A stretch of DNA of 60,750 bases, the filler included, from Sphacelaria rigidula (taxonomy: Eukaryota): assembly GCA_964200075.2 (NCBI GenBank). It is 8 parts of 8 records of this genome, joined end to end, with 100 filler letters (N's around TTAATTAATTAA, not from the genome) between each part and the next. Parts side by side here need not be neighbours in the genome. Positions count along the whole stretch, not along the records: positions 22,821 to 30,326 come from CAXNAA020014594.1; 7 more parts are not named here. One strand, 5' to 3'. Position numbers and translations under genes: made by a program. Every line of letters starts with the position of its first letter. Position 1 is the stretch's first letter. This document shows positions 2,250 to 30,498 of the stretch, piece by piece. A model generated the notes under the pieces. That model searched no databases. It saw only the letters and a list, made by a program, of their open reading frames with translations, and had not been told where the DNA came from.

Positions 2250-5200
2250 ACCATGGGTGAATCGCAGCCCAACTGGTTGAAGTATTCTCCGCGTGTTAGC
2301 CGCTGCAATACACATGCCATTCCACATCCTTTTCATCAGTTGGTTGAAGGAATAATCGAACACAACTGCTGCATCGACGCCGGCCATGTCACACCCTCGA
2401 TCGGTTGGTAGAAAGTATGTCCGAACAGAAAAATGCTGCCGTGACGCAGGCCATGTCACACCCTCGATCGACTTGAAACTGCAACGACAAAGATTATGCC
2501 ACACTTCCGATCGACACAGGTTACACCACACTCTCAATCGACGTGCCACTAGGTGAGACTTGTCCGAACGTCAGCTCCTGCAGTGACGGAGGCCATACCA
2601 CACCGTTGATCGCCTGGTTGAAGTGTATTCCGAACGTAAGCTGCTGCAGCGACGCGGGCCATGCAACGCCCTTGATCCGTTGGTTGAAGAATCTCCCGAA
2701 CGTAAGCTGCTGCAGCGACGCAGGCCACGCCACACCCTCAATCGACTGGTTGAATGATCTCGCGAACGTCAGCTGCCGCAGGGACGCCGGCCATACCACA
2801 TCCTCGATCGGCTGGTTGAAATGCCTCTTAAATGTGAGGCGCTCCGGTGACGCGGGCCATGCCACACCCTTGATCGGCTGGTCGAAGAAGCGTCCGAAAG
2901 CCAGCTGCTGTAGTGACGCCGGCCATGCCACACCTTCAATCGGCTGGTTGAAGGAATATCCAAACGCCAGCTGCTGCAGTGACGCCGGCCATGCCACACC
3001 CTCAATCGGCTGGTTGAAGGAATATCCAAACGCCAGGTATTGCAGCGTTGCTCGCCATGCCACACCCTCGATCGGCTGGTTGAAGGAATCCTCGAACGCC
3101 AGGTGTTGCAGCGACGCCGGCCATACCACACCCTCGATTGGTTGATTGAAGGAATTTCCGAACGTCAGCTGCTGTAGTGACACTGGCCATGACACGCCCT
3201 CGATCGGCTGGTTGAAGTAATCCTCAAACGCCAGTTGCTGCAGCGATGCCGGCCATACCACACCCTCGATCGGCTGGTTGAAGGAATTTCCAAACGCTAG
3301 CTTCTGCAGTGACGCCGGCCATGTCACACCCTCGATCGGCTGGTTGAAGGAATCCTCGAACGTTAGCTTCTGCAGTGACGCCGGCCATTTCACATCCTCG
3401 ATCGGCTGGTTGAAGGGATTTCCGAACGTTAACTCCTGCAGTGACGCCGGCCATGTCACACCCTCGATCGGCTGGTTGAAGGAAATTCCGAACGTCAGCC
3501 GTTGCAGCGACGCAGGCCATGTCACATCCTCGATCGGCTGGTTGAAGGAATTTCCAAACGCTAGCTCCAACAGTGACGCCGGCCATACCACACCCTCGAT
3601 CGGCTGGTTGAAGGAATTTCCAAACGCTAGCTTCTGCAGTGACGCCGGCCATGTCACATCCTCGATCGGCTGGTTGAAGGAATTTACGAACGTTAACTCC
3701 TGCAGTGACGCCGGCCATGTCACACCCTCGAACGGCTGGTTGAAGGGATTTCCGAACGTTAACTCCTGCAGTGACGCCGGCCATGTCGCACCCTCGAACG
3801 GCTGGTTGAAGGAAACTCCGAACGTCAGCCGTTGCAGCGACGCAGGCCATGTCACACCCTCGAACGGCTGGTTGAAGGAATTTCCAAACGTTAACTCCTG
3901 CAGTGACGCCGGTCATGTCACACCCTCGATTGGCTTGTTGAACTCTTTTCCCACTGTCAGGCGATGCAGTGACGCAGGCCATGCCGCTCTCATGACCGGC
4001 TGGTTGAAGGCATTTCCAAAAGTCAGCTCCTTCATTGTCGACGGCCATGTCACACCCTCGATCGGCTGGTTGAAGGAAATTCCGAACGTCAGCCGCTGGA
4101 GCGACGCAGGCCATGCCGCATCGTTGACCGGCTTGTTGAAATCTTTTCCCAATGTCAGGCGATGCAGTGACGCAGGCCATGCCACATTCTCGATCGGCTG
4201 GTTGAAGGAAGTTCCGAACGCCAGCTGCTGCAGCGACGCAGGCCAAACCATACCCTCGATTGGCTGTTGAAGGAATATCCGAACCCCAGCTGCTGCAGAG
4301 ACGCAGGCCATGCAACAACCTTGATCGGCTGGTTGAAGGCATATCCGAACGTCACCTGCTGTAGAGACCCAGACCATGCCCCACCCTCGATTGGCTGGTT
4401 GAAGCGATACCCATATTTCAGCGACTCGGGCCATGCCCAAGCCTCGAACACGTAGTCAAAGAAGTTTCCGAATCTCAGCTGCTGCAACGAGGCAGGCCAT
4501 GTCACACCCTCGATCGGCTGGTCAAAGAAAAGTCCGAACGTCGGCTGCTGCAGTAGTCCAGGCCATGCCACACCCTCGATCGGCTGGTTAAAGTACTGTC
4601 CGAACCACAGCTGCTGTAGTAGCTCAGGCCATGTTACACCCTCGATCGGCTGGATAAATGAACTCCCGAACGTCAGCTGCCGCAGTGACGCAGGCCATGC
4701 CGCACCCTCGATCGGCTGGTTGAAGGCATCTCCAAAAGTCAGCTCTTTCATTTACGACGGCCATGTCCTACCCGCGATCGGCCGATTGAAGGAATATCCG
4801 AACACCAGCTGCTGCAGGAACGCGGGCCAATTCCACATCTTCGGTCGGCTGCTTGAATGAACCCCCGAACGTCAGTTGCCGCAGTGACGCAGGCCATGCC
4901 ACACCCTCGATCGGCTGCTTGAATTCTTTTCCGAATCAGCTGCTGCAACGACGCAGGCCATACCACACCCTCGATCGGCTGGTTGAAGGAATTCCCAAAC
5001 GTCAGCTGCTGCAGGGACGCAGGCCATCCTACACCCTTGATCTGCTGGTTGAAAGAATATCCAAACGTCAGCTCCTGCAGCGACACAGGCCAGACCACTT
5101 TCAAAATGGGTTTGTTAAAGCCCGCCGCCACGTATTCGTTCGAAAACACTATCTCCCTGACTTGCGGGGGCCAGACAACAGATTCTAGACCGCGATTGAA

Positions 5201-5558
5201 CTTCCTGTTGAAGTAAATGCTTCGCACGCTGGCCAAATGGTTGGTCGCGCAAGACATCAACGCTGTGTCAGCAGTCGACATCCACCTAATGCCACGTGCT
5301 CGTAATATCGGCACTCGAGTTACTCCAGTGCGGCCTCTATTTCCAGCTATCAGAGTCGGAGATTGCTCGGTCGTATCCGCCCATAGCCTGCGCGGCGTAG
5401 ATCCATCACACTTCACAAACAGAGTACATAGGCTGCGACAAGCGATGCAAATATGTATCGAAGCCAGCTGTAACTGCTTCGTCGGTAAATACGGCTCATC
5501 CGCGGAGGAAGTCTGGTTGAAGACAATGGTGGAAATCTCCAGACAAAAGTAGCTCCCT
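2250..5558 (-). pseudogene. FNIP-repeat (LRR-like) protein gene, disrupted by frameshifts and a nonsense codon
   Basis: ORF pieces 4748-5416, 4155-4751, 3913-4440 and 2521-3855 all encode 22-aa repeats FGxxFNQPIEGVxWPASLQxLx. TGA replaces a Trp codon at 3913-3915; 1-bp deletion near 4263; further shifts near 4750-4940. A non-repeat N-terminal region stays open up to a possible splice acceptor (TTTTTGCCCCAG) at ~5559. Ends are approximate. Confidence 0.85.
2560..5200 (-). repeat. Coding tandem array of 66-bp FNIP units (~40 copies)
   Basis: Recurring + strand core GACGCCGGCCATGTCACACCCTCGATCGGCTGGTTGAAGGAA at a 66-bp period; 20 units counted in ORF 2521-3855 alone; total estimated from length. 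Confidence 0.95.
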
Positions 5559-7507
5559 GGGGCAAAAATATGGAACGAGCACTTTGCTCGTTCAGCTCGT
5601 GTAGATCATCACAAGCGAACACATTAAACGCGACTTGATGACGCAGTCCTAGACCATTGCATATTCTGCACGCACGGCGCAGGAACTGAGGGTTCATCGT
5701 GATGCGAAATCTAACATCGCCGGCATTTATAATCCCGTTTCAGCCGCCACGTGTCTGCAGGAAGGTAATAAGTCCACTTACCGTCGAGTTATCACCTACG
5801 ACATGCGATAATTATCCGTACCACTTCAGCTTACAGCAGGTCTGTTCATAAGAGGTGAGGTGGACTGAGTTTTCAGCTCGTGGTATGGGTAGCTACGGCC
5901 TATCGAACACTTGCACTTGACTCCTCTCATATGCGCGTCACCATGCCAGTCAACCACAAATCGCCGTAGTAGGAACACTATTTTGCGCAAAGTCTTTCGT
6001 GCTCGGCAATGTGACAACACGCTGAGCTGTAAGTCCTCTACAAAAGTTCCAACCGTACGCGATATGTTCCTTATTACATGCACAAATTCCACTGCTCTTG
6101 GAACACCCTCACTTGCTGCCGTGTCAACAGCCTCAGCGACGCCACCCCCTGCAGCTTTGGAGTCGTCAGCGGCTAATATCTTGCGGCGAGTACGCACCAT
6201 CGTTCAGCAACTCTTTACTGTAGGTCACAAAGCCTCGGAAGCACGTGGGAAACCTCTCGTGATGTCTTCCGCTCGTGCGCACCTGAGATCGGAAATATGA
6301 GAAACGACATCGCGCGGGTGACTGAGTTACAGCACATTATGTAACGATCTAGAGCGCTCGAGTGCGCATCGTGCCGCTCGCTTGTTGTCAACAACTCGAA
6401 GCAAACTCACATGCGCACGATTCCACTGGACCGAAATCGTGGGGGTGAAGAAGCTTGCTTCGTATCGATCGTACGCGATCATGATCGAAGAAACATGAGA
6501 AAAAAATGTTCACCCGCGGGGTAAGTGAACACCACTAAATTCTTCGTCTGTTCAGTCTGCCCGTTCGCGTCTTTCTGCTCAGTCTGGGTGACTGCTGACA
6601 ACATACCAAAAGCTGTACCCAACTAAAGACCAAACCGGTCGCAAGCTGATCCTGTCTTTTGTCGCTCCTCGTCATATCTCTTGCTTTTCCCATGTTCTGT
6701 CCGTGGGCTCAAGTACTTCTTCACTGACCAAGTTCATCACGGAGATATTCGCGACATCTTGACCGTCAAAGAACAATTTCACCCAACACATGAACACTTG
6801 AGGTTTGGAATCCAACGCAATCCAAGGATGAAATTCAGTAGAAGCCATGACAGCGTCGCGGATACTCGTCTTTGGAGTTCATCTAAACAGCAACCCCTGA
6901 CGCAAAACATAAGAGACGTTGATGCATAGGTTTGCAAAAGTTGTATGAGATGATGTGCCTCTTGAATTTTGCGTTGTGTTTGGTACCAATTTCGGGTTTT
7001 AGGGTCGGGAAACACCCAATTGAGTGATCGATACCCCTCACTCTCATGTGCACACGCAGGGACGCCATCATGTTTGGCTTCCTTGTTTACCTGATATTTC
7101 TCTCTCACCAACCAGGGGCTTACAAACAGTACAAAACCGTTTGGGTTTGAGGGACGGTTATGCTGCGAGAAAAAACGCGACTTGCGTCTTTCCTACATTG
7201 TGCAGCGTATCACATTTCCATGTTTTGTACACCCAAGGGAATGATGTTACATTGACGCCGTATTGATGACGGCTTCAGTACCTTCATGACGGAAGCCCCT
7301 CACTAGCTATTCGGGGTGCACAGCAAAGTTACGAGACCATCGGGGCGGGGCGATAGCCTAAGCGACACCCTAGATGTGTGTTGCCGAAAAACACGAGAAC
7401 GTGCTTTTCCCGCGCAATTGCTCCGCACACCACATAACAGCAGATCCTATGTTTTGGGGTTGAAACATAATATGAGGTTGAAGTCCCATCCCTCCATTGC
7501 ATGGAAG

Positions 7508-7917: not shown

Positions 7918-8202
7918 NNNNNNNNNNCACAAGGTGTGGGGTGTGGTTGAGCAAACAACAAAGTTTAGCAAAAAAGCTTACCTCCCCCCCCCCCCCCCCC
8001 CCCCCTTCGTCAGCTCCGCCCTCTTTCAGGCCGCGTTTTTTTAATTTTCGAGTTCAATATATCTGTTGTCTTGACATTAAAAACGCTCCGATATCTGCGG
8101 AGTACTCTGTACTGGGCATCTGATGCGGACGCCTTCATTGGTCACAGGCTAACTACCCCAAGCTAGGGTAGAAGAAAAAATATGAAATAAGTCGAACCCA
8201 TC

Positions 8203-8285
8203 GTACGTCTATCATGAGACCACGGCTGGACCCCCGGGGGGTCAGTTCAAGTGCGACAATCAATCGATCGATCAATCAATCATCA
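8203..8285 (+). mobile_element. Family A retroposon 3' end, (CAAT)n tail, heavily 5'-truncated
   Basis: GTACGTCTATCATGAGACCACGGCTGGACCCCCGGGGGGTCAGTTCAAGTGCGACAATCAATC; matches the copies at 21527, 32683, 33407 and 50109. Confidence 0.8.
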
Positions 8286-10861
8286 GAAACAGTTCACCCA
8301 CACGCGATACACATGAAAATAACGAATAAAATGAAAATATATAAAGCAAAAATAGGGGGAAAATACTGCTTGCCCCCCAAGATCTGATACCGTATGCGAT
8401 CATTCGGGCAACTGGAGGCAGATCCCATTGGTCCACTCAAGACGCGAAGCCAAACAGAGGAAGGGAGCAGAACTCAAGGACCAAGATCACCAGTCATAGC
8501 GATCACAGGGTTCTATCTTCGTACCTCTGGAGGAAAAGTAATGTGTACGGATATACTGTGCTAGGCATAACAGGAAAAATACCACATAGCAACACACCAC
8601 CTCGGGGGAGGGGTGCATGGAAGTCTGCAATAAGTAGTAGGGAAAAATAAAAGAGAAGACGATGCAAATACATTCGGGAACTTGAAACGAGCCCAAAAAA
8701 TTACGGATAGGGCAAAACGTCACACAGACAACATGGGCGAAGTCGGATTTGGGCGACCGGTACATAGCGCAGAGGACGAGAAGAATAGCCCTCCCTAGGG
8801 ATGCTTTCTACCATAAATTCAGGGGTGGTACCCACCGTTTTCGCCCATACCATGCGAGTGGCAATACGTTTGGGTTATATCAAAGTTTTCCGGGATACTT
8901 GCGAGATATGGAAATTATGAAAAATATAAACATTTCCTCATCCAGAAATCTACTGATAGTGCCCCCCCCCCCCCCCATTCCCAATCACATGTCACACTGG
9001 TGGTATCTACCGTTTTCGCCTGTTGTACAAAAATGGTCATGCACCTCAACACCCAAACGCACTGAGAAAATGTGTAAACAATGAAGCATTTGACCTATCC
9101 CCCCCCCCCCGTTTCTCCCCCCCCGGGGATGGAATTGTATTCCTTCCCTAGATATGATGGGTGTGCTATCTATCGTCTTCGCTAGTGTGGCATCGTACAC
9201 ACGAATGACGATGCCCCCGAACACCCGGGGAGCATTATTATCCCCTACCTGAACAGTCTCAGCGGGAAGGGAATGTTATATAACGTTTTAGTCGTTTGCG
9301 GCCGGATGTTCATGAACCTGAACATTTGACCAGCACCAGGAGAAAGGGTGCGATCTACCCTAACTAGTGATACATATCGCTATTCTTAACGAGACTGTAG
9401 ACACGCGGGGGAGATGCTGTTCCATCCCCTGCCAAAACACGCGTAGCGCATAGCGGTCAAAATGCACCGCCAGGACCTGTTTTAGACGCGGGATTTTACA
9501 AGTTGAGGATGGTATTTTGTTGAAAATGAAGCTTGAGAACCTTCATAAGCATTGAAATCTTTTCGAAATGTGAATGCAAATCCACCCTCCGGACGCGATG
9601 CGTGGCCCCGCTCATCCTCCATAGAATTCATTCGCAAGTTGTACAATCCCGTGTTTACTCCCAAATGATCCGTCCCCCGTTCATTCCCGTACTCAAAAAC
9701 TGTTGTTGTTTGTCATGAATCCTCTGTTACCGCGGAATCTTACAAGTTGCGGATGATTTTTTTTAATAAGAAGGAGCAAGGCCACACACCACGGCCGGAT
9801 AGTGCATTTGCATTTCATTTTCGAGAATATTGCGATGCTTACTAAGGTTACCAAGGTTCACCCTCGAATGAAAAAAGCCTCCTCAATTTGTAAAACCCTG
9901 CGTTTATGTACGAACAGTGATACCCCTGAACACGACGCGGGAGGCATCGTTCCAACGCACCCACGCTATCCTACTGCTTTAGGACTCCCTACCTTCCTCG
10001 CCCCTTCTCCCCGAGGATGACTTCAGCGCATCGCCTCCCCGAACAACGACAGCGGAAAAGGGGTGTCATCCGACGTTTGGGTCATTTGCGACCGGGCAAC
10101 AATGAATCTGAACACGTGACCGCTACAAATGGAAACTCTACAACCTACCGGAAGTAGCATAATCGTTTTTGTGTTTCTTGACGAGACTGGAGACACTTCT
10201 GGGGAAACATTGTTACACCCCCTCCCCAAGTACGCCCTGGGATCAAGATACCGTCAGGACTTGTTAAATACTAATGGCGAGGCCCCTGAACACGCGAGTC
10301 GTGACTGGAACGCATGCACCCTACTTGCTGATTTGAGAGCATCCTTCCCCCCTCCCCGACCATGAGATAGGCATATTTCCTCCCCGAAAACCCTCGCCTA
10401 GGGAGAGGGTGTTGTTTGACGTATTGGCCATTTGCGGGCGGACTACAGTGCACGCATGAGAGTTATCGTACAAACACGGAAACTCTCGCTATAGTATGTA
10501 CCCCATGAATAGTCAACAACACTGTGATAGCTTTCGTTTGCGACAGGACAAAACGGCGGATACCACTTCGGGGACGGTTACTTTCCTATTCCTGGAAAGA
10601 CCACGGGCCTTACCTCCACATGAGCTATGAATACATTTGCAAATGTAGTCGCACTTACCACGCGGAAAATGTTCGACTCTTAATGACGTGTTGGATGTGT
10701 GCTGAAACAACCGAAACAAGAGCGGGGCAACATTAGCCCGTAGGCTGTTCTAAATTCAAATGAATTGGTCAGGACCTTCACATGGCATTTGCCACGACTG
10801 ACATCACCCGATTCGGCCGCAGATTACGCCTACCCCCCCTGATTCGATAACGTAGAGTACC

Positions 10862-22820: not shown

Positions 22821-25800
22821 GTGGGAGCACTGCTATGTCAGGCTCGCGTACGTAGTTGAGATACGCACTAAACTCTTTGCGCTGTTCTTCCTGGAGTCGG
22901 GCAGGATCGAGCACAGGGAATAACGAAACGGCACTAGAAAACAATTCCGTGTCGTTTTGCACTATGTCAATCTCGTTTAACGAGTCGGCGGAAATTTCGT
23001 AGTCACGCGGCCCAGGTGAAAAGTACGGACGATCACTCGGCACGTTACGGCAGATAGACGCTAATGCCGGTTGATGTGCCACTGGTTCAGTTCCAATTTC
23101 GCCGAACAAACGAGATAGTGCGTCGGGGACTACATTCAGTTTCCCGGGTACATGCTTAACAGTAAAGTCGTAATTTTGGAGAGCAATTGCCCAACGAGTA
23201 AGCATGTTGCTAGTATCTTGCATGTAGTACAAATGTGTGAGTGCGGAGTGGTCAGTCATCACGGTGAAATGCCGTCCAAAAAGATAAGGTCTCCAGTGCG
23301 ATAAGGCATGCACTACTCCACAACACTCCTTCATCGACGCTGAATAGTGTCGTTGCCCATGTTTAAAACGGTGGCTATAGTAAGCAATGATGTTAAGGGA
23401 CTTGTCATCATCCTTCGACGGCTGGGCAATGAAAGCACCACACCCGACTTCGGACGAATCAACGTGGACGACAAACTCTCTGGAAAAATCCGGGAAATGT
23501 AAAACGGGGGCTGAAACCAACAGACGCTTGATGTGCGCAAATGCCACATCGTGGTTGACATTCCAAGCCTTTTTGAAACGAGATTTTGTGGCATACTCTT
23601 TCTTTGTGAGCTCCACCAAGGGTGCAGTAACTTCGGCGTAATCAGGAATAAAACGGCGCACAAAATTAACTACCCCAAGCACTGAGCGAAGTTCTTTGAT
23701 GCAGGTGGGCGTCGGCAGTGCATTGATAGCTGTGATCCGATCCTCCCCAACAGACACGCCGTCTTTGGAAATTACGTGCCCAAGGTATTCAATCGATTTA
23801 GGACCAAACGCGACCTTCGACGGTTTCAATGTCAGTCCGGCTGCCTGCAGAGCTACGAACATGCTCTCCAAAGACTTCAAATGATTCTCGAAATTCGCCG
23901 ACAAGACACAGAGATCATCCATGTAAATCAACAATTCGGGAATGTGGCCTAACGTTTTATGGGCCATCTCAGTGAAAATCCATGGCGCATTACACACCCC
24001 AAACGGCATTCTCTTATAACAGTATTTGCCCTGGTTGGTAACAAACGCCGTACGCTCTACGTGGTCTGACCTCACTGGAAGCTGCCAGTACGCGCTCTGT
24101 ATGTCGGCAACGGAGATGAACTGTGCGCTGCCAACGGTGTCGAGGTTGGACTCCATGTTCGCCATCGGCCACGTCTTGCGAATCAGCAGCTTGTTCAACG
24201 TAGTACGGTAGTCGACGCAGAAACGAGGTTGACCATCTTTACGAGCGACAATCGTGACGGGGGAACCCCACGGGCTAGGTAGTTCTTCAATGATCCCGTC
24301 AGTGAGCATATCCTTCACGCACTTATTAATAACGGCTTCGGCGCGAGGGTTGGCACGATACGGTCGGCGGCTCACAGGTTTAGTGTTGGGCGGCAAGGGA
24401 AACGTTGCGTCATGGGTGGTGCATTTTCCGAGTTCACCCCGGTTCAACGAAAACACGGGACGGTATTTTGCACACAAATCCAACACTCGAGCTTGTTGCT
24501 CAGGGGAAAACGTGGAGTCAGCGAAAGCTTTCTCTAACGGTTCTGTGAGTTCTTGGCGTGCATGAGCGATTTCACCTACGGTTTTGGGAGTCGCTGCAAC
24601 GGCATGCACGCAAAGTTTGTCAGGTTGTACGATCTCAACTGAAGACAGTTTCCCAAGAACTAGGTTGTCATGCAATGCGAGAGACTCCGAAGACGGATTT
24701 GCAACTTGTAAGTATACTGCGCCATCCCGAGCATGCCAAGTAGTCAGAGTACGCGCGACGAGTACACGTTCAAATTCGATGGGAAAGTCGCCGGATTTGA
24801 TTTCTTCAGTTGTCAACAAACGAGGTTCAACTACAACGGTAGTATCATGTAACGGTATGGCCTCCGAGTACGCTTTTACGATTGCGTTATGCCCGGGGGG
24901 AATGTTATAACGTCGGTGCAGCGTGATCGAATGCTCCCGTGCTTTTTTGTGTACAGCAGCAACGGTGAACGTGGATGGTGGCGTGCTGCTGGTGCGTGGT
25001 ACTTTACGATGTAACGCAGGGAGAACAGTATCATTCGATGCAAAAGTCAGCTGTTCGTTCTTCCAATCAAGTACTGCACCGAAACGAGACATTGCGTCAT
25101 TGTCAAGCAAGATTTGATCAGGGCCGAGGGAAGGGATCACCAAGGCATCAATACGGCGGGAGACGTCTCCCAAACGAACGTTTAACGAAAGATAACCCAA
25201 CACTTGAAGTGGCGCTCCATTTGCGGCATTTAGCTTCATGTGAGAGGGTGGTACGGGCTCGAGTTGAGCAAACGATAACGTAGGATGTCGTTTCAAGTAC
25301 GAAAGTGAAACGCACGTGACATCACTTGCAGTATCAATGGTCAACTCCGGAACGAAGTGATCATTAATATATCCAGGCGTACGGACACGCTTGGACGAAA
25401 AAGAAAAAAACAACGAAGACTTCTTCCGCGATAGCGAAGAAAGATAACGGGAAACACGGGTATTCTCATTAATTCCGCCATGATGTTCAATTTTTTTCCT
25501 CTTACGGCCGCTCGAACTACGATTCGATGCCAGTTCTACCTGAACCACTCTGCTGGCCTTTAGTTTTCGAGCACTTCGAACACCAATAGACTCGCTACTG
25601 TCCAGGGGGGAAATGGCTGCGCCAACGGGGCACTCTGACTTACTAGCGGGGACGCTCACGGGAGAATCTACCCTGACACCAAGACGGGTTACAGCAGGCA
25701 ATGACTGACTCTCATCTACCGAATCTCTACAGTCATGCTGGCTACGCGGAATGCTTTGCGACTCACGACTCGCAGGCAACGAATTAGCAAGTGACGCCAA

Positions 25801-25893
25801 ACGACTACGGGGTCGTTTAACGCCCTTCCTACCAAGCAACACGGTACTGGTAGGTTTTATCCCAAGTGCTACGGGCACAACACCTGGGCACCC
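22821..25893 (-). CDS. pol: Pol polyprotein (aspartic protease, RT, RNase H), 3'-truncated
   Basis: Uninterrupted >1000-aa frame: LTIDTASDVT (protease), SPWGSP...RFCVDYR, MPFGVCNAP, YMDD (RT), VHVDSS...KECCGVV...TDHSAL...NVVPDALSR (RNase H). Confidence 0.95.
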
Positions 25894-26805
25894 CTACTCG
25901 GAGCCGGAATCCTCTCGCCGTGTGCGCCGACGGCGGCGCTTGGACAGTGCAGTCCCAGCGGCGATTTCAGCAGCCTCAATTTCGTCATCCTCCCGGCGCC
26001 AGCAATGGTCGAGGTCGTGTGAATTCCGCGATTCGCACTTTTCATAAGTACAATCCGCGCGGTCGGGGTCGAGGCGGTGACTGTATCGAGCGCGCGACGA
26101 ACGAGCGCCGTTGCGGTGGCGGTTGCTACCTCCCAACGAGCGACCAGGGGAGTTGTTTCTGTTTTTCCCGCCACGGGCGATGGTGTTGCTGTTGCGGTTG
26201 CCCCCAGCAGCGCGCGTGTTGGGGTTGCTGTTGCCCCTGGTCGCTGCGGACGCGATCACTATACGTGAGGATGGACGATTGGCTGCGGCACGAGCAGTTG
26301 ATTGCTGCGTGGCAGCTTGCGCGTGTTGGAACGCCTGCGCAGTTGTAGTGCCGGCCACAGCGCCATATGCTGCAGAACTGGCACTGAATGGCACGGGTTG
26401 ACGACCCTCCCGAAGAGCAAGGATTCGCGCCTGCGTCTCTTCTTCCCACAGGATCCGCACGAGGTCTCCGGGTTCGAGGGGAGTAAGAGCATCCTCGTGG
26501 CGTGCTACGGACACGCTGGCTCTACTCACAGTGCTGGCTCTACCAGCAGCGGCACCATGAGGGGCGGCTCCATCAGCCACGGCTTCGGTTGCGAAGTTGA
26601 CGACACGGTCGTCATCGCTGGCGCCACTGACGCCACTATCGCCATCATCTTGGTCATTGTTGTTAGCGGCACGGCCACTAACGTCTGCCTCAGAAGCAGA
26701 GTCGGACTCCGGTTCGAAATCAACCTGGTCGTCCTGGTCGGCGATTGCTGCCACAGTCGCCTCTTCAGCATCCTGGGATGCCGTGCGTTTCTTTTTTCTC
26801 TTCAT
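25894..26805 (-). CDS. gag: Gag-like ORF with variant zinc knuckle
   Basis: Position between PBS and pol; CTYEKCESRNSHDLDHC (CX4CX5HX4C); basic C-terminus; start taken at the ATG of MKRKKKR. Confidence 0.7.
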   Translation of the reverse strand: MKRKKKRTASQDAEEATVAAIADQDDQVDFEPESDSASEADVSGRAANNNDQDDGDSGVSGASDDDRVVNFATEAVADGAAPHGAAAGRASTVSRASVSVARHEDALTPLEPGDLVRILWEEETQARILALREGRQPVPFSASSAAYGAVAGTTTAQAFQHAQAATQQSTARAAANRPSSRIVIASAATRGNSNPNTRAAGGNRNSNTIARGGKNRNNSPGRSLGGSNRHRNGARSSRARYSHRLDPDRADCTYEKCESRNSHDLDHCWRREDDEIEAAEIAAGTALSKRRRRRTRREDSGSE

Positions 26806-26877
26806 CACGCGGCCAAGCAATTGTAGGCCGCAATGCACGATCACCAACGCTTGCGTGTTGATCAGTCGACGCCACTA

Positions 26878-27175
26878 TGGAAGGGATAAGCCCCTTCGTA
26901 GGTTCTACAAGACGTTGGTCTCTTCTTCAGCGGTTTGGTGCGGAGTACACACCGGGTTGTGTCGTGTGTGGGCGAGCCAGCTGGGCTGAATTTGCATAGC
27001 AAAGATGCCCCGCGTTTATCCGAGGAATGTTCCTTCAGGGGTATTCCTCCGAGGTATTCCTCCGAGGAATTCCAGGAACGGTTCTGACTCTATCTGTGTA
27101 ACCCCGGCCAGAACTACGGTTCTGGACGGCCATCTGACGTCACTCTACCTGTCAATCTATGGTGGCATTTACACA
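26878..27175 (-). repeat. Putative 5' LTR of the Gypsy element (~300 bp), followed by PBS-like TGGCGTC
   Basis: Minus strand begins TGTGTAAAT, ends CCTTCCA, then TAG-TGGCGTCGAC; the second LTR is absent so boundaries are unconfirmed. Confidence 0.55.
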
Positions 27176-27359
27176 ACGACCAGTAATATACTTAAAGAAG
27201 AATCAAAAAGCCTTTTTTTCTCCTCTTGGCATATCAGTACCCGCATCTCTTTGGAATTGTGTTTGAACAAGACGGCTAACCTTCATAAAAAACAGTTGAA
27301 CCTACATTTGGGAATAGAGTGAAGACTTCTCCCACGACACTGGCGATCGACGGTACTCT

Positions 27360-28295
27360 GTGAGGAAGGTTCAGCAAGGTCTGCACAGCACAGTTCTTCG
27401 GTTCGACACTCCGACTACCAATATGTCCGGTAAGAGCAATCGCTCCGTGCGTGATGTGCAAAATACGAAGGGGGTCCGAACAAGGTCACAGCGTCGGGCA
27501 GATGATCTGGCACGAAATACAACTTTGACTTTTGCGGCTAGTTCACATGTGTCGCATGTATCAGAGACACATGTGTCGGAGGTATCAGAAACAAGTGAGA
27601 GACGAAATGAGGAGTCAGTTGAAAGCGTGTCGGATTTAGAACCGAGGCTTTCAGCAATTTCAGGTATAAACACTGGGGGGGAAAGAAGCATTACCGAAAA
27701 ATCTTCGGCGCTTCACCCTCATCGGGAGGATGACAGGACGGAAGTACAGAGTAATTCGCTAATAAATAATGAAAACAACTCGCGTCGTGCATCAGATGTA
27801 GAACCAGTGTTTATCCCTGAAGGAGGTCGAAGCCTTACCGATGAAACAACGTCGGCGTTTCATGCCTCCAACACAGACGACATGAAATGTGTTGAGAGCC
27901 TGACGGTAGCAGGGGCAAAAATTCACATCACAAATGTTGTGGACAGAGAGGGACAAAAGCGGTCCGTAGAAACGCCGTGTGTCCCAGCCTCTGTTGCTCC
28001 TGACAGTGACGTGCTCACTGTGCTAAACCATGATATTGAAACTTCACAACTGCCCAGTGCTGTGTATGACACGCTGGTGGGTAGCAACGTGAGGATGCCC
28101 ACGGATCGAAATGAAATGCTTGCTGGTAGTAAAGTTGAATCATCTGGTGATGTGAACAACATGCTTGCTGGTAGCAATTTGCAGTCGCCCACGAGAACAA
28201 ATGACATAGTTGTGGGTGATCAGGCAAAAGGTGGTGATGATTCCAAAATGATAGAAGGTACCCAAGTACCACTGTCCAGCGTTCATGATAAATAG
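27360..28295 (+). other. Ser/Glu-rich ORF of unknown function, probably retroelement-derived
   Basis: 311-codon open frame with low-complexity composition, overlapping tail-to-tail with a gag-like ORF. Confidence 0.35.
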
Positions 28296-29378
28296 GTTGC
28301 GAAAGTGGTTCCCGGTTCCACTGTAAAATTCACCAACAAACCCATGACACCTGCCGGGGTCACTTTGCTCAAAACCCTGCTTAGCATCCGGAGTACATGT
28401 TCAACAGCCTCCGGACCCTTTGATCCCCTATCTTGCATCCTAATCGCTTCATTGGTGACGTCAGCAATTCGTGTGCGCAGTAGTGATGCTGCCTGAGTCC
28501 CTTGTGGGGAGGATTTATTGCCTCGGATAGATTTCAGTAGATGTTTTTGTAAACATTTTACCCAACCCGGGTGCCAATCATCAGGGTCGGTATCCCCCAC
28601 TATTACCCGCATGTCATTCACGGAGTCTCTTAGAGCGGCGCCAAAAGCTACCAAATCAGCCACATCATGATTCGGACTGAGCGGCAATTTTGGCAACTCA
28701 ATTAAAATAGAAGTATCCATTTTGGCATACTCTCTTGCAATATCCGTGGCCGACTTGCCCGATTGGGGGGAGTACGGACACTGTGTTCACTATTTGTGGT
28801 GGGACCGGCTGTGTGTTGTCAACAGTTGATTCGGCGACTGACCTTTGCTTAGCGTGATAAAGCGGCATGTTCCCCCGGCCTCTGCCCCGGCGACCTCTCG
28901 GAGACCGCTGCTCGTGCCAGCTGGACGAGCTGCTTCCACCCTCAGAATTAGATTCTTCCCACCTCCGTGGCTCTCTGTCCTCGCCTCCCCTCGCAATCCC
29001 CCCACCTTGATTGCTCGGATTCGTCCGCATTAAGTGGAATTCCACCCAATCTGACAGGGGTCAATCCTCCGGGCATGTCCTTTTTATTTCCAGGTACTCC
29101 GAGAAAGTCAATGTATTTGTAGCCGCTTGCACTGGTGGCCGCGGTTGCTGATCCGAGCGGACCGGCGCCATCTCAACGGCTGGCTGCCGTTGAACCGCGG
29201 GGACCCTTTCCACGGTTTGCTGCCGTTGCACAGTTTGGGTTTCTGGCATCGGAGAGGCAGGCGGAAGTGGCGCGACTGGCGCAGGGTGCTCTGTCGAGGG
29301 GGTGACAGCCCCCCCGGGGGGTTTGCTGAGCCCCCTCTGATATTCCGCATATTCAGCTGGCCCCATATGCTGCGGCAA
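28283..29378 (-). pseudogene. Frameshifted gag/capsid-like fragment of a second retroelement
   Basis: Helical-looking segment 28283-28720 ending NFTVEPGTTFATYLS (MHR-like), preceded by Pro/Gln-rich broken frames. Confidence 0.45.
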
Positions 29379-30498
29379 AATGTTTGCCTCAGGAACCTGA
29401 TCGACCGTGGTTGTTTCCCGGGCTTTCCGGGCCTCTAACAGTTAGCACTTCAGCCCGTATTAAGTATCGGAGGACCTGTCCCTCCTGCAGAAACTGCAAA
29501 TACTAATATCGACACTGAGTCAGTCCGCTCAGTCCAACTCGCTCGTCATTGCATGGGGCGACTACGAGTCGGGGGAACGGGGAATTAACGTCCCCACCGG
29601 GTAAGAATTGCGGTGCCGACGGAACAATGAAATCCAACGTAAGGACTGATCATCCGAAGGAAGGAAATTCAAATGTTGGAAAGTCATCACAATCCTGTAC
29701 AGATAAGAATGTGACCCAGTCTGTAGGCACTTTAATGCAGATGGGGGCAAGAGGGGCTTTCGCGTGGAAATCTTGTACAACATTTCAGTCTGGCCGTCGG
29801 AATAGTGCATCAGCTGAGGGTCGCTCCCCTAGTTGCGCACAAATTCTAAGCGATGTCTTACGTGAAAAAGAAGCATCGAGTGCAAAGGCACACAGCCGAG
29901 ATGAATCATGCGAACCGTCGGTCGTAGCCAGGGTTTTGGATGGACCCGATGCGATTGTACAGTCGCAAAGTAATGAGCACCCAGTAGAAAAAGTAGTCAT
30001 CCAGGGTGAGGCAGGTGAACCGCGTGCTCGAGTTAGCACTGAACGTAGCCCTCGATACCCACTTGGACCGGGGAAAAACACGCAAAGATCACAACGCCGC
30101 AGGTTCTACCGTGCGAGATTAAACAATCCGCATCGGCAGGAACAACAGAAATAGTAGGAACCTGGTTGATCGAAGTGACATTACTCCTGCTGAAACTGGA
30201 TCTTCGATTGCTCACGGCAAGTCTGCCCGCAACATTCGGGATAATAGTAATGCTCCGGTAGGGGAACAAAATAATTGTCCCGCCGAGATTTCCACTGTGC
30301 ATGAAGAAACAAAACGCACCAGTTCGNNNNNNNNNNNNNNNNNNNNNNNNNNNNNNNNNNNNNNNNNNNNTTAATTAATTAANNNNNNNNNNNNNNNNNN
30401 NNNNNNNNNNNNNNNNNNNNNNNNNNTCTGTGTGGTTTTGTGGGTTGTCATGTCGTTCGAGGATGTGTGGTGTGAGAAGAGATTCGGTTCTGAGGATG

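Follow-up and report, generated by a model that had tools for sequence, protein, structure and literature searches.

A Ty3/Gypsy LTR retrotransposon of the brown alga Sphacelaria rigidula ends its gag gene at an in-frame UAG, and comparison with related copies strongly supports this codon as a programmed stop rather than a private mutation. We put the probability that Pol is made by programmed readthrough of this stop, stimulated by a downstream RNA cassette, at about 0.73. The readthrough reading draws on the in-frame continuity of gag and pol, the lack of an AUG, the lack of a slippery site, and helices held at a fixed distance from the stop. The cassette is predicted to contain two hairpins, S1 and S3, and a short strand that could pair either with the S1 loop, forming helix S2 of a three-stem pseudoknot, or with sequence further downstream, forming a fourth hairpin, S4. 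The window analysed here is a stretch of 60,750 nucleotides in which several contigs of about 7.5 kb each are joined with N spacers between them. The element lies on contig C14594 (22821-30326), and its features are collected in Table 1.

Table 1. Features of the retrotransposon and its gag-pol junction, in window coordinates.
Feature	Position	Strand	Remarks
5' LTR, about 297 bp, starts TGT	26876..27173	-	Same segment found twice in copy C7834
Putative primer-binding site, begins TGG, after the LTR	26858..26875	-	Proposed from position and TGG start
gag ORF, 303 aa	25897..26805	-	From sequence; window copy without the capsid-like middle part
Exact in-frame exon-exon junction in gag	26322..26323	-	1065-1072 nt GT..AG segment of other copies absent
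Gag zinc knuckle, C-x4-C-x5-H-x4-C	26002..26052	-	Read directly from sequence
TAG ending gag, in frame	25894..25896	-	8/8 family A copies
5-nt spacer	25889..25893	-	Conserved context stop-NNN-YGC-CC begins here; family comparison
Stem 1 (S1) hairpin, 10 bp	25861..25888	-	Strands 25879-25888/25861-25870; loop 25871-25878 contains the S2 5' strand (25873-25878)
Stem 3 (S3) hairpin	25828..25854	-	Strands 25848-25854/25828-25834; different sequence but present in F, G, H, C, C2
Shared strand	25820..25825	-	S2 3' arm or 5' base of hairpin S4
Hairpin S4, 13 bp	25793..25824	-	Strands 25812-25824/25793-25805; conserved, covarying; absent from first reading
pol in gag frame: spacer, protease, RT, RNase H	22822..25893	-	Ends at contig edge before integrase

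The Ty3/Gypsy assignment follows from the LTR pair in copy C7834 and from an integrase after RNase H. In C7834, the two LTR segments lie at 492-788 and 8201-8497, about 8 kb apart and 94% identical, and no long ORF (env) was found 3' of the integrase in this decayed copy. The window pol carries the protease motif DTAS at 25335 and the RT motif YMDD at 23925. Pfam confirms its RT and RNase H, while the protease is identified by motif and alignment, with weak Pfam support (E 0.019 on P0005). An integrase is present downstream of RNase H in copy C2877 and in protein P0001, and the combined order of protease, RT, RNase H and integrase fits Ty3/Gypsy. The part of a listed 1042-aa ORF that extends beyond the contig end is N padding between joined contigs. 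Among named proteins, the closest relatives of Pol come from Ectocarpus, with 81% identity over 53% of the searched region, and the genome holds 11 DNA matches to the element, 8 of which cover the gag-pol junction. Upstream of the LTR, at 27318-29441, lie more ORF fragments; those tested have no Pfam match, and one is helical and gag-like by eye. Elsewhere in the window, 2273-5605 on the minus strand contains tandem 66-nt repeats encoding FNIP repeats.

Comparative analysis shows that the gag stop is widely conserved. The original prediction had read a single UAG where gag ends, and the minus strand indeed reads GAG TAG GGG TGC CCA there. Alignment of other copies gives TAG in every family A copy that spans the junction, family A being that of the window element. 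A protease search of the genome listed 150 matches, from which 92 protease-anchored loci were taken; with one duplicate removed, 59 of the remaining 91 align across the stop site. Stop codons occupy the site in 54 of these 59 junction-bearing Gypsy loci (44 TGA, 8 TAG, 2 TAA), and the remaining five carry sense codons that are all single-base variants (3 TGG, 1 TCA, 1 TTA). The stop-bearing loci fall into eight family groups, whose protease identities go as low as about 35-52%; family A uses TAG and the seven others use UGA, and all eight share the context stop-NNN-YGC-CC after the stop. C20887 seemed to end its gag in TAA, but this was rejected as an upstream nonsense change.

The same end point recurs outside this genome. 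Among five Gag homologues from other assemblies, three (P0141, P0142 and P0144) stop at the acidic tail that also closes the window gag, one is truncated earlier and one is frameshifted. Among 20 longer proteins there is no close relative, identity reaching 40% at most, and this argues weakly against a fused form. The case for a programmed stop thus rests on its presence throughout family A, its recurrence across the eight groups, and the homologues elsewhere that end there. The junction is missing from 32 of the 91 loci, which are short, truncated or rearranged. In a comparison of 30 of them, the two large groups carry unrelated shared sequence at the join, which is neither a sense codon nor a splice join. 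L153-L158 (C18532, C13293, C12833, C1088, C18742 and C650) form two derivatives of families B and E, each in multiple copies, which have unrelated shared sequence instead of gag and the stop and are likely non-autonomous. A loose genome-wide search for the stop context gave no enrichment (160 matches against 244 control matches), and 18 of 20 sampled matches lacked a protease. Protease-alignment scans of metagenome and viral contigs returned no relatives.

Beyond the stop, pol stays in the gag frame for 1024 codons, as far as the contig end at 22822, which bears out the earlier claim of more than 1000 codons. No AUG precedes the protease motif, as had also been proposed: DTAS is at codon 187 and the first AUG is codon 219. 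The 164 codons from stop to protease in the window are open, in frame and AUG-free, and only 2 of 5000 base shuffles of this spacer are stop-free. The spacer is likewise stop-free in frame in copies of families A, B, C and F without indels, and AUG is absent upstream of the protease in families A, C and F. A search of 25800-26100 found no slippery heptamer.

The three stems of the original prediction are all present in the window, with 10 of 10 pairs in S1 (two G-U, starting 5 nt past the stop), 6 of 6 in S2 (two G-U) and 7 of 7 in S3. Compensatory changes were sought across families with a sequence-only MAFFT alignment of 16 junctions (A 5/8, F 4/4, G 1/2, H 1/2, C 4/5, plus C2), which leaves out families B, D and E. 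In this alignment, S1 is 90% paired with two-sided changes at 4 of 9 pairs, S2 is 85% paired with two-sided changes at 2 of 6 pairs, and S3 is 70% paired, owing to a register that varies from family to family; pairing in slid controls is 35-40%. RNAalifold recovers S1 unprompted, and S1 and S3 are well supported as conserved helices. By eye, the decaying copies of family A show no two-sided change, and Rfam returned 0 matches for the junction element at E up to 5.

The three-stem arrangement as a whole was scored with a descriptor and structure derived from these sequences and written after inspection, and relatedness inflates the shuffle controls; with these limits, none of 300 dinucleotide shuffles attains the window score, nor does any of the 339 other in-frame positions. 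Across families, the shuffles reaching the score number 0 of 300 in A, F, G, H and C2 and 1 in C, while the in-frame positions reaching it number 0 of 339 in A, F, G and C2, 1 in H and 3 in C. The compact model beats shuffles in 6 of 10 family representatives. It fails in B (15/300 shuffles), E (80/300), and D and D2 (no model), where the stop is nonetheless retained. L076, L094, L134 and L087, from families E, D, D2 and B, keep the stop and its context and share a CCCUCG about 18 nt downstream; this B/D/D2/E subclade, which misfits the three-stem model, may adopt a different fold.

For S2 the evidence is real but modest. Taken alone, S2 is marginal in the window, where 110 of 2000 loop permutations do as well, and the six families range from 4 to 131 of 2000 (110, 20, 4, 126, 83 and 131), with loops placed by hand in A, H and C2. 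In C and C2, the highest-scoring S2 uses a more distal partner than the aligned one. A four-fold synonymous G in the S1 loop is kept in six of six families, as is its S2 partner C, compared with 105 of 292 such sites (36%) identical in the protease, although the loop site was chosen after inspection. C-G and U-A also exchange at two S2 pairs across families. On the protease tree, G groups with F and not with A, and the C-G form at one S2 pair therefore implies at least two changes.

The fourth hairpin, S4, complicates this picture. It uses the 3' strand of S2, so the two helices are mutually exclusive. In A, F, G and H, S4 belongs to the nested minimum-energy fold, and in seven copies from these families (C and C2 excluded) it is 88% paired with two-sided changes at 5 of 13 pairs, covarying more than S2. 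The energy needed to release the shared strand from S4 is 5.0-11.5 kcal/mol in 10 of 11 copies from six families and 0.9 in one, while S2 stacking yields 11-16 kcal/mol before any pseudoknot penalty. Such a penalty is about 7-10 kcal/mol, and with it S4 would be favoured at equilibrium. The claim of a three-stem pseudoknot is therefore well supported for S1 and S3 but is not established as a stable fold, since S2 has modest covariation and a rival hairpin.

One alternative keeps readthrough but assigns its stimulation to hairpins S1, S3 and S4 together with local context, leaving the pseudoknot absent or irrelevant. The energetic and covariation standing of S4 favours it, S4 accounts for the conserved shared strand without S2, and B, D and E retain the stop and context without the three-stem model. 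What S4 leaves unexplained is the conservation in the S1 loop, namely the synonymous G and the exchanges at two S2 pairs, along with the repeated change implied by the placement of G. This alternative is serious but, on balance, rather unlikely. Judged by sequence, the S2 and S4 pairings both appear to be selected; either the RNA switches between them or S2 represents a minor state. We give slightly less than an even chance to part-time formation of the pseudoknot in competition with S4.

Under the readthrough model, most ribosomes would terminate at the stop and release Gag, while a few would insert an amino acid there and continue into Gag-Pol. S1 and S3 would form in both states, the shared strand would pair with either the S1 loop or its downstream partner, and the balance between S2 and S4 would set the readthrough rate. 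Readthrough with the pseudoknot competing against S4 is a tentative proposal, a little short of even odds. Of the original claim of a readthrough signal, the programmed stop is strongly supported, readthrough is the most likely route to Pol, and a stable three-stem pseudoknot stays tentative. Among the points against the readthrough model is the spacer: at only 5 nt, it would leave the base of S1 inside the ribosome channel. The channel holds 11-12 nt, and shortening the MuLV spacer by one codon impairs readthrough, according to the available text of PMC13517186.

The gag gene itself has a second peculiarity. Four copies (C266, C2877, C237 and C27073) carry a gag segment of about 1.07 kb with a capsid-like region; it is bordered by GT..AG in C266 and C2877, while the donor is changed in C237 and absent in C27073. 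The window copy and C7834 lack this segment exactly and in frame, and C15791 lacks it plus about 80 nt. Because the segment is missing exactly at the GT..AG boundaries, the window copy probably derives from a spliced RNA and is without capsid; C7834 and C15791 likewise look like products of spliced RNA. A Retrotrans_gag signal, below the curated cut-off, occurs only in intron-containing copies and not in the window copy, and the AlphaFold model of the intron-encoded region has a pLDDT of 40. P0145, from another data set, shows the same gag exon join as the window copy.

Of eight sequencing runs, none is on record as RNA and four were guessed to be RNA; two of the run studies look like one data set filed twice, with X1 = X5 and X3 = X8 in their figures. 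In putative RNA contigs covering about 25400-27173, depth over the gag exons and some 400 nt beyond the stop greatly exceeds that over the intron or pol. Contig depth cannot rank these parts, and the deep gag exons give a hint of a short capsid-less gag RNA. A loose end at 25498 has one near match, C74, which diverges and is unrelated to the element.

The intron makes room for an alternative in which the stop truly terminates the protein. Pol would then be translated from a rare RNA that is spliced or has a start of its own, and the helices would act in packaging, RNA stability or the choice of 3' end. A pyrimidine-rich AG lies just upstream of the protease, in phase with the gag intron donor, and P0037 joins Gag to protease without the zinc knuckle, the stop and most of the spacer, although this protein may reflect a deletion, a splice or a gene-calling artefact. 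Splicing regulates Ogre (PMC6317226) and plant Copia elements (PMC5580714), and a weak promoter is described at the Tca2 junction (PMC2194720), as far as the available parts of these sources go. No joint that skips the stop appears among those listed in the putative RNA contigs, but this is not evidence against skipping because contigs drop rare forms. The spacer, however, stays open and in the gag frame, for which the model has no need, and in six families the helices keep a constant distance to the stop. In the junction-less subfamilies the join shows unrelated sequence that has no AG and is no gag exon, and a Gag-Pol without capsid would be hard to package. Together these points make a spliced or separately started pol RNA unlikely.

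Very unlikely is a third alternative, in which Pol arises when ribosomes reinitiate at a non-AUG codon once they have terminated, or some RNAs carry the stop edited to UGG. GUG codons lie shortly after the stop and TGG occupies the site in 3 of 59 loci, but the TGG copies are explained by single substitutions and reinitiation would produce free Pol without a Gag tether. One contig from run X1 spans the stop without any mismatched letter, although this run is not on record as RNA and contigs drop rare variants. Finally, a private nonsense mutation with stems arising by chance is refuted: most copies are decayed and hold many random stops, yet this stop recurs in 54 of 59 loci, in two codon forms across families, and at the ends of homologues in other assemblies.

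Compared with known systems, the predicted readthrough at this junction resembles that of MoMLV, a Beier-Grimm type III case with an in-frame stop at the end of gag followed by a pseudoknot, the same layout that is predicted in the window family. MoMLV has a UAG, an 8-nt spacer and an H-type pseudoknot (available text of PMC13517186 and PMC3835772), and a three-stemmed model has been proposed for it too (PMC13517186, in part). Family A fits UAGGGV and shares spacer positions G1, G2, G5 and C7 with the description in that source (PMC13517186, likewise in part). The algal spacer is 5 nt long, whereas that of MoMLV is 8 nt and purine-rich, and so lies outside the type III pattern. The earlier reading of a MuLV-like UAG-G is correct for family A but not as a conserved context: UAGGGV is absent from the seven UGA groups, where the base after the stop is A, U or G, mostly A or U. 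The algal element also differs in its large separate S3, its competing S4 and about 165 spacer codons before the protease, and it is known from sequence only, whereas readthrough is established for MoMLV.

The original prediction also held that Ty3/Gypsy elements more commonly use frameshifting or a single ORF; stop-separated members have already been described. The fission-yeast Ty3/Gypsy elements Tj1, Tosmo1-3 and Tcry1 have an in-frame gag/pol stop and no AUG for Pol, as does the algal element, and the Tj1 stop is required for transposition (PMC4600332 and bioRxiv 10.1101/2022.12.06.519325, from their available text). They belong to the Tf1/sushi group, and no downstream structure is described for them in the available portions of PMC4600332 and 10.1101/2022.12.06.519325. 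Their conserved context in those portions is GAA-TGA-CT, unlike the algal stop-NNN-YGC-CC.

Two further systems share parts of the predicted architecture. Tca2 of Candida albicans is an element of the Ty1/Copia type. It has a gag-UGA-pol arrangement with a predicted downstream pseudoknot, a likeness to the algal junction, but gave no readthrough in S. cerevisiae, a failure that advises caution here (PMC2194720, available text). The second is the SARS-CoV three-stem pseudoknot, a recoding stimulator for frameshifting (PMC1110908, in its available part). It acts in -1 frameshifting at a slippery site, unlike the algal case, in which the genes are in frame, with no heptamer and no Rfam match. The strand order in SARS-CoV is S1, S2, S1', S3, S2', as in the algal model.

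The general layout, a gag stop with a MuLV-type pseudoknot, is thus known, while the two-state structure appears to be new. Readthrough in brown-algal retrotransposons is not reported in the literature searched, a scope that did not take in the Gao et al. 2003 survey. The main text of the Ectocarpus transposon paper (PMC12477816), in its available part, does not contain 'readthrough' or 'stop', though its supplements could annotate the clade. Gammaretroviruses and a few RNA viruses are the main settings in which structure-stimulated readthrough has been characterised, and the sole tested retrotransposon pseudoknot in the literature searched, that of Tca2 as described in the accessible text, failed. 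If true, the algal junction would be the first recoding signal for brown algae within that literature.

In its widest form, the proposal is that a brown-algal Gypsy clade sets its Gag:Gag-Pol ratio by a two-state RNA switch behind either UAG or UGA. The strand would take part by turns in a three-stem pseudoknot like that of coronaviruses and in a hairpin further downstream, and the window family would additionally possess a capsid-removing intron; this full combination is doubtful but possible. For annotation, Gag and Pol stand as separate protein entries, and the stop between them could pass for decay. The clade offers a natural series of at least six diverged signals that show compensatory changes, use both stop codons and have a short spacer. 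This series could reveal what a readthrough stimulator requires and whether switching between conformers sets the rate.
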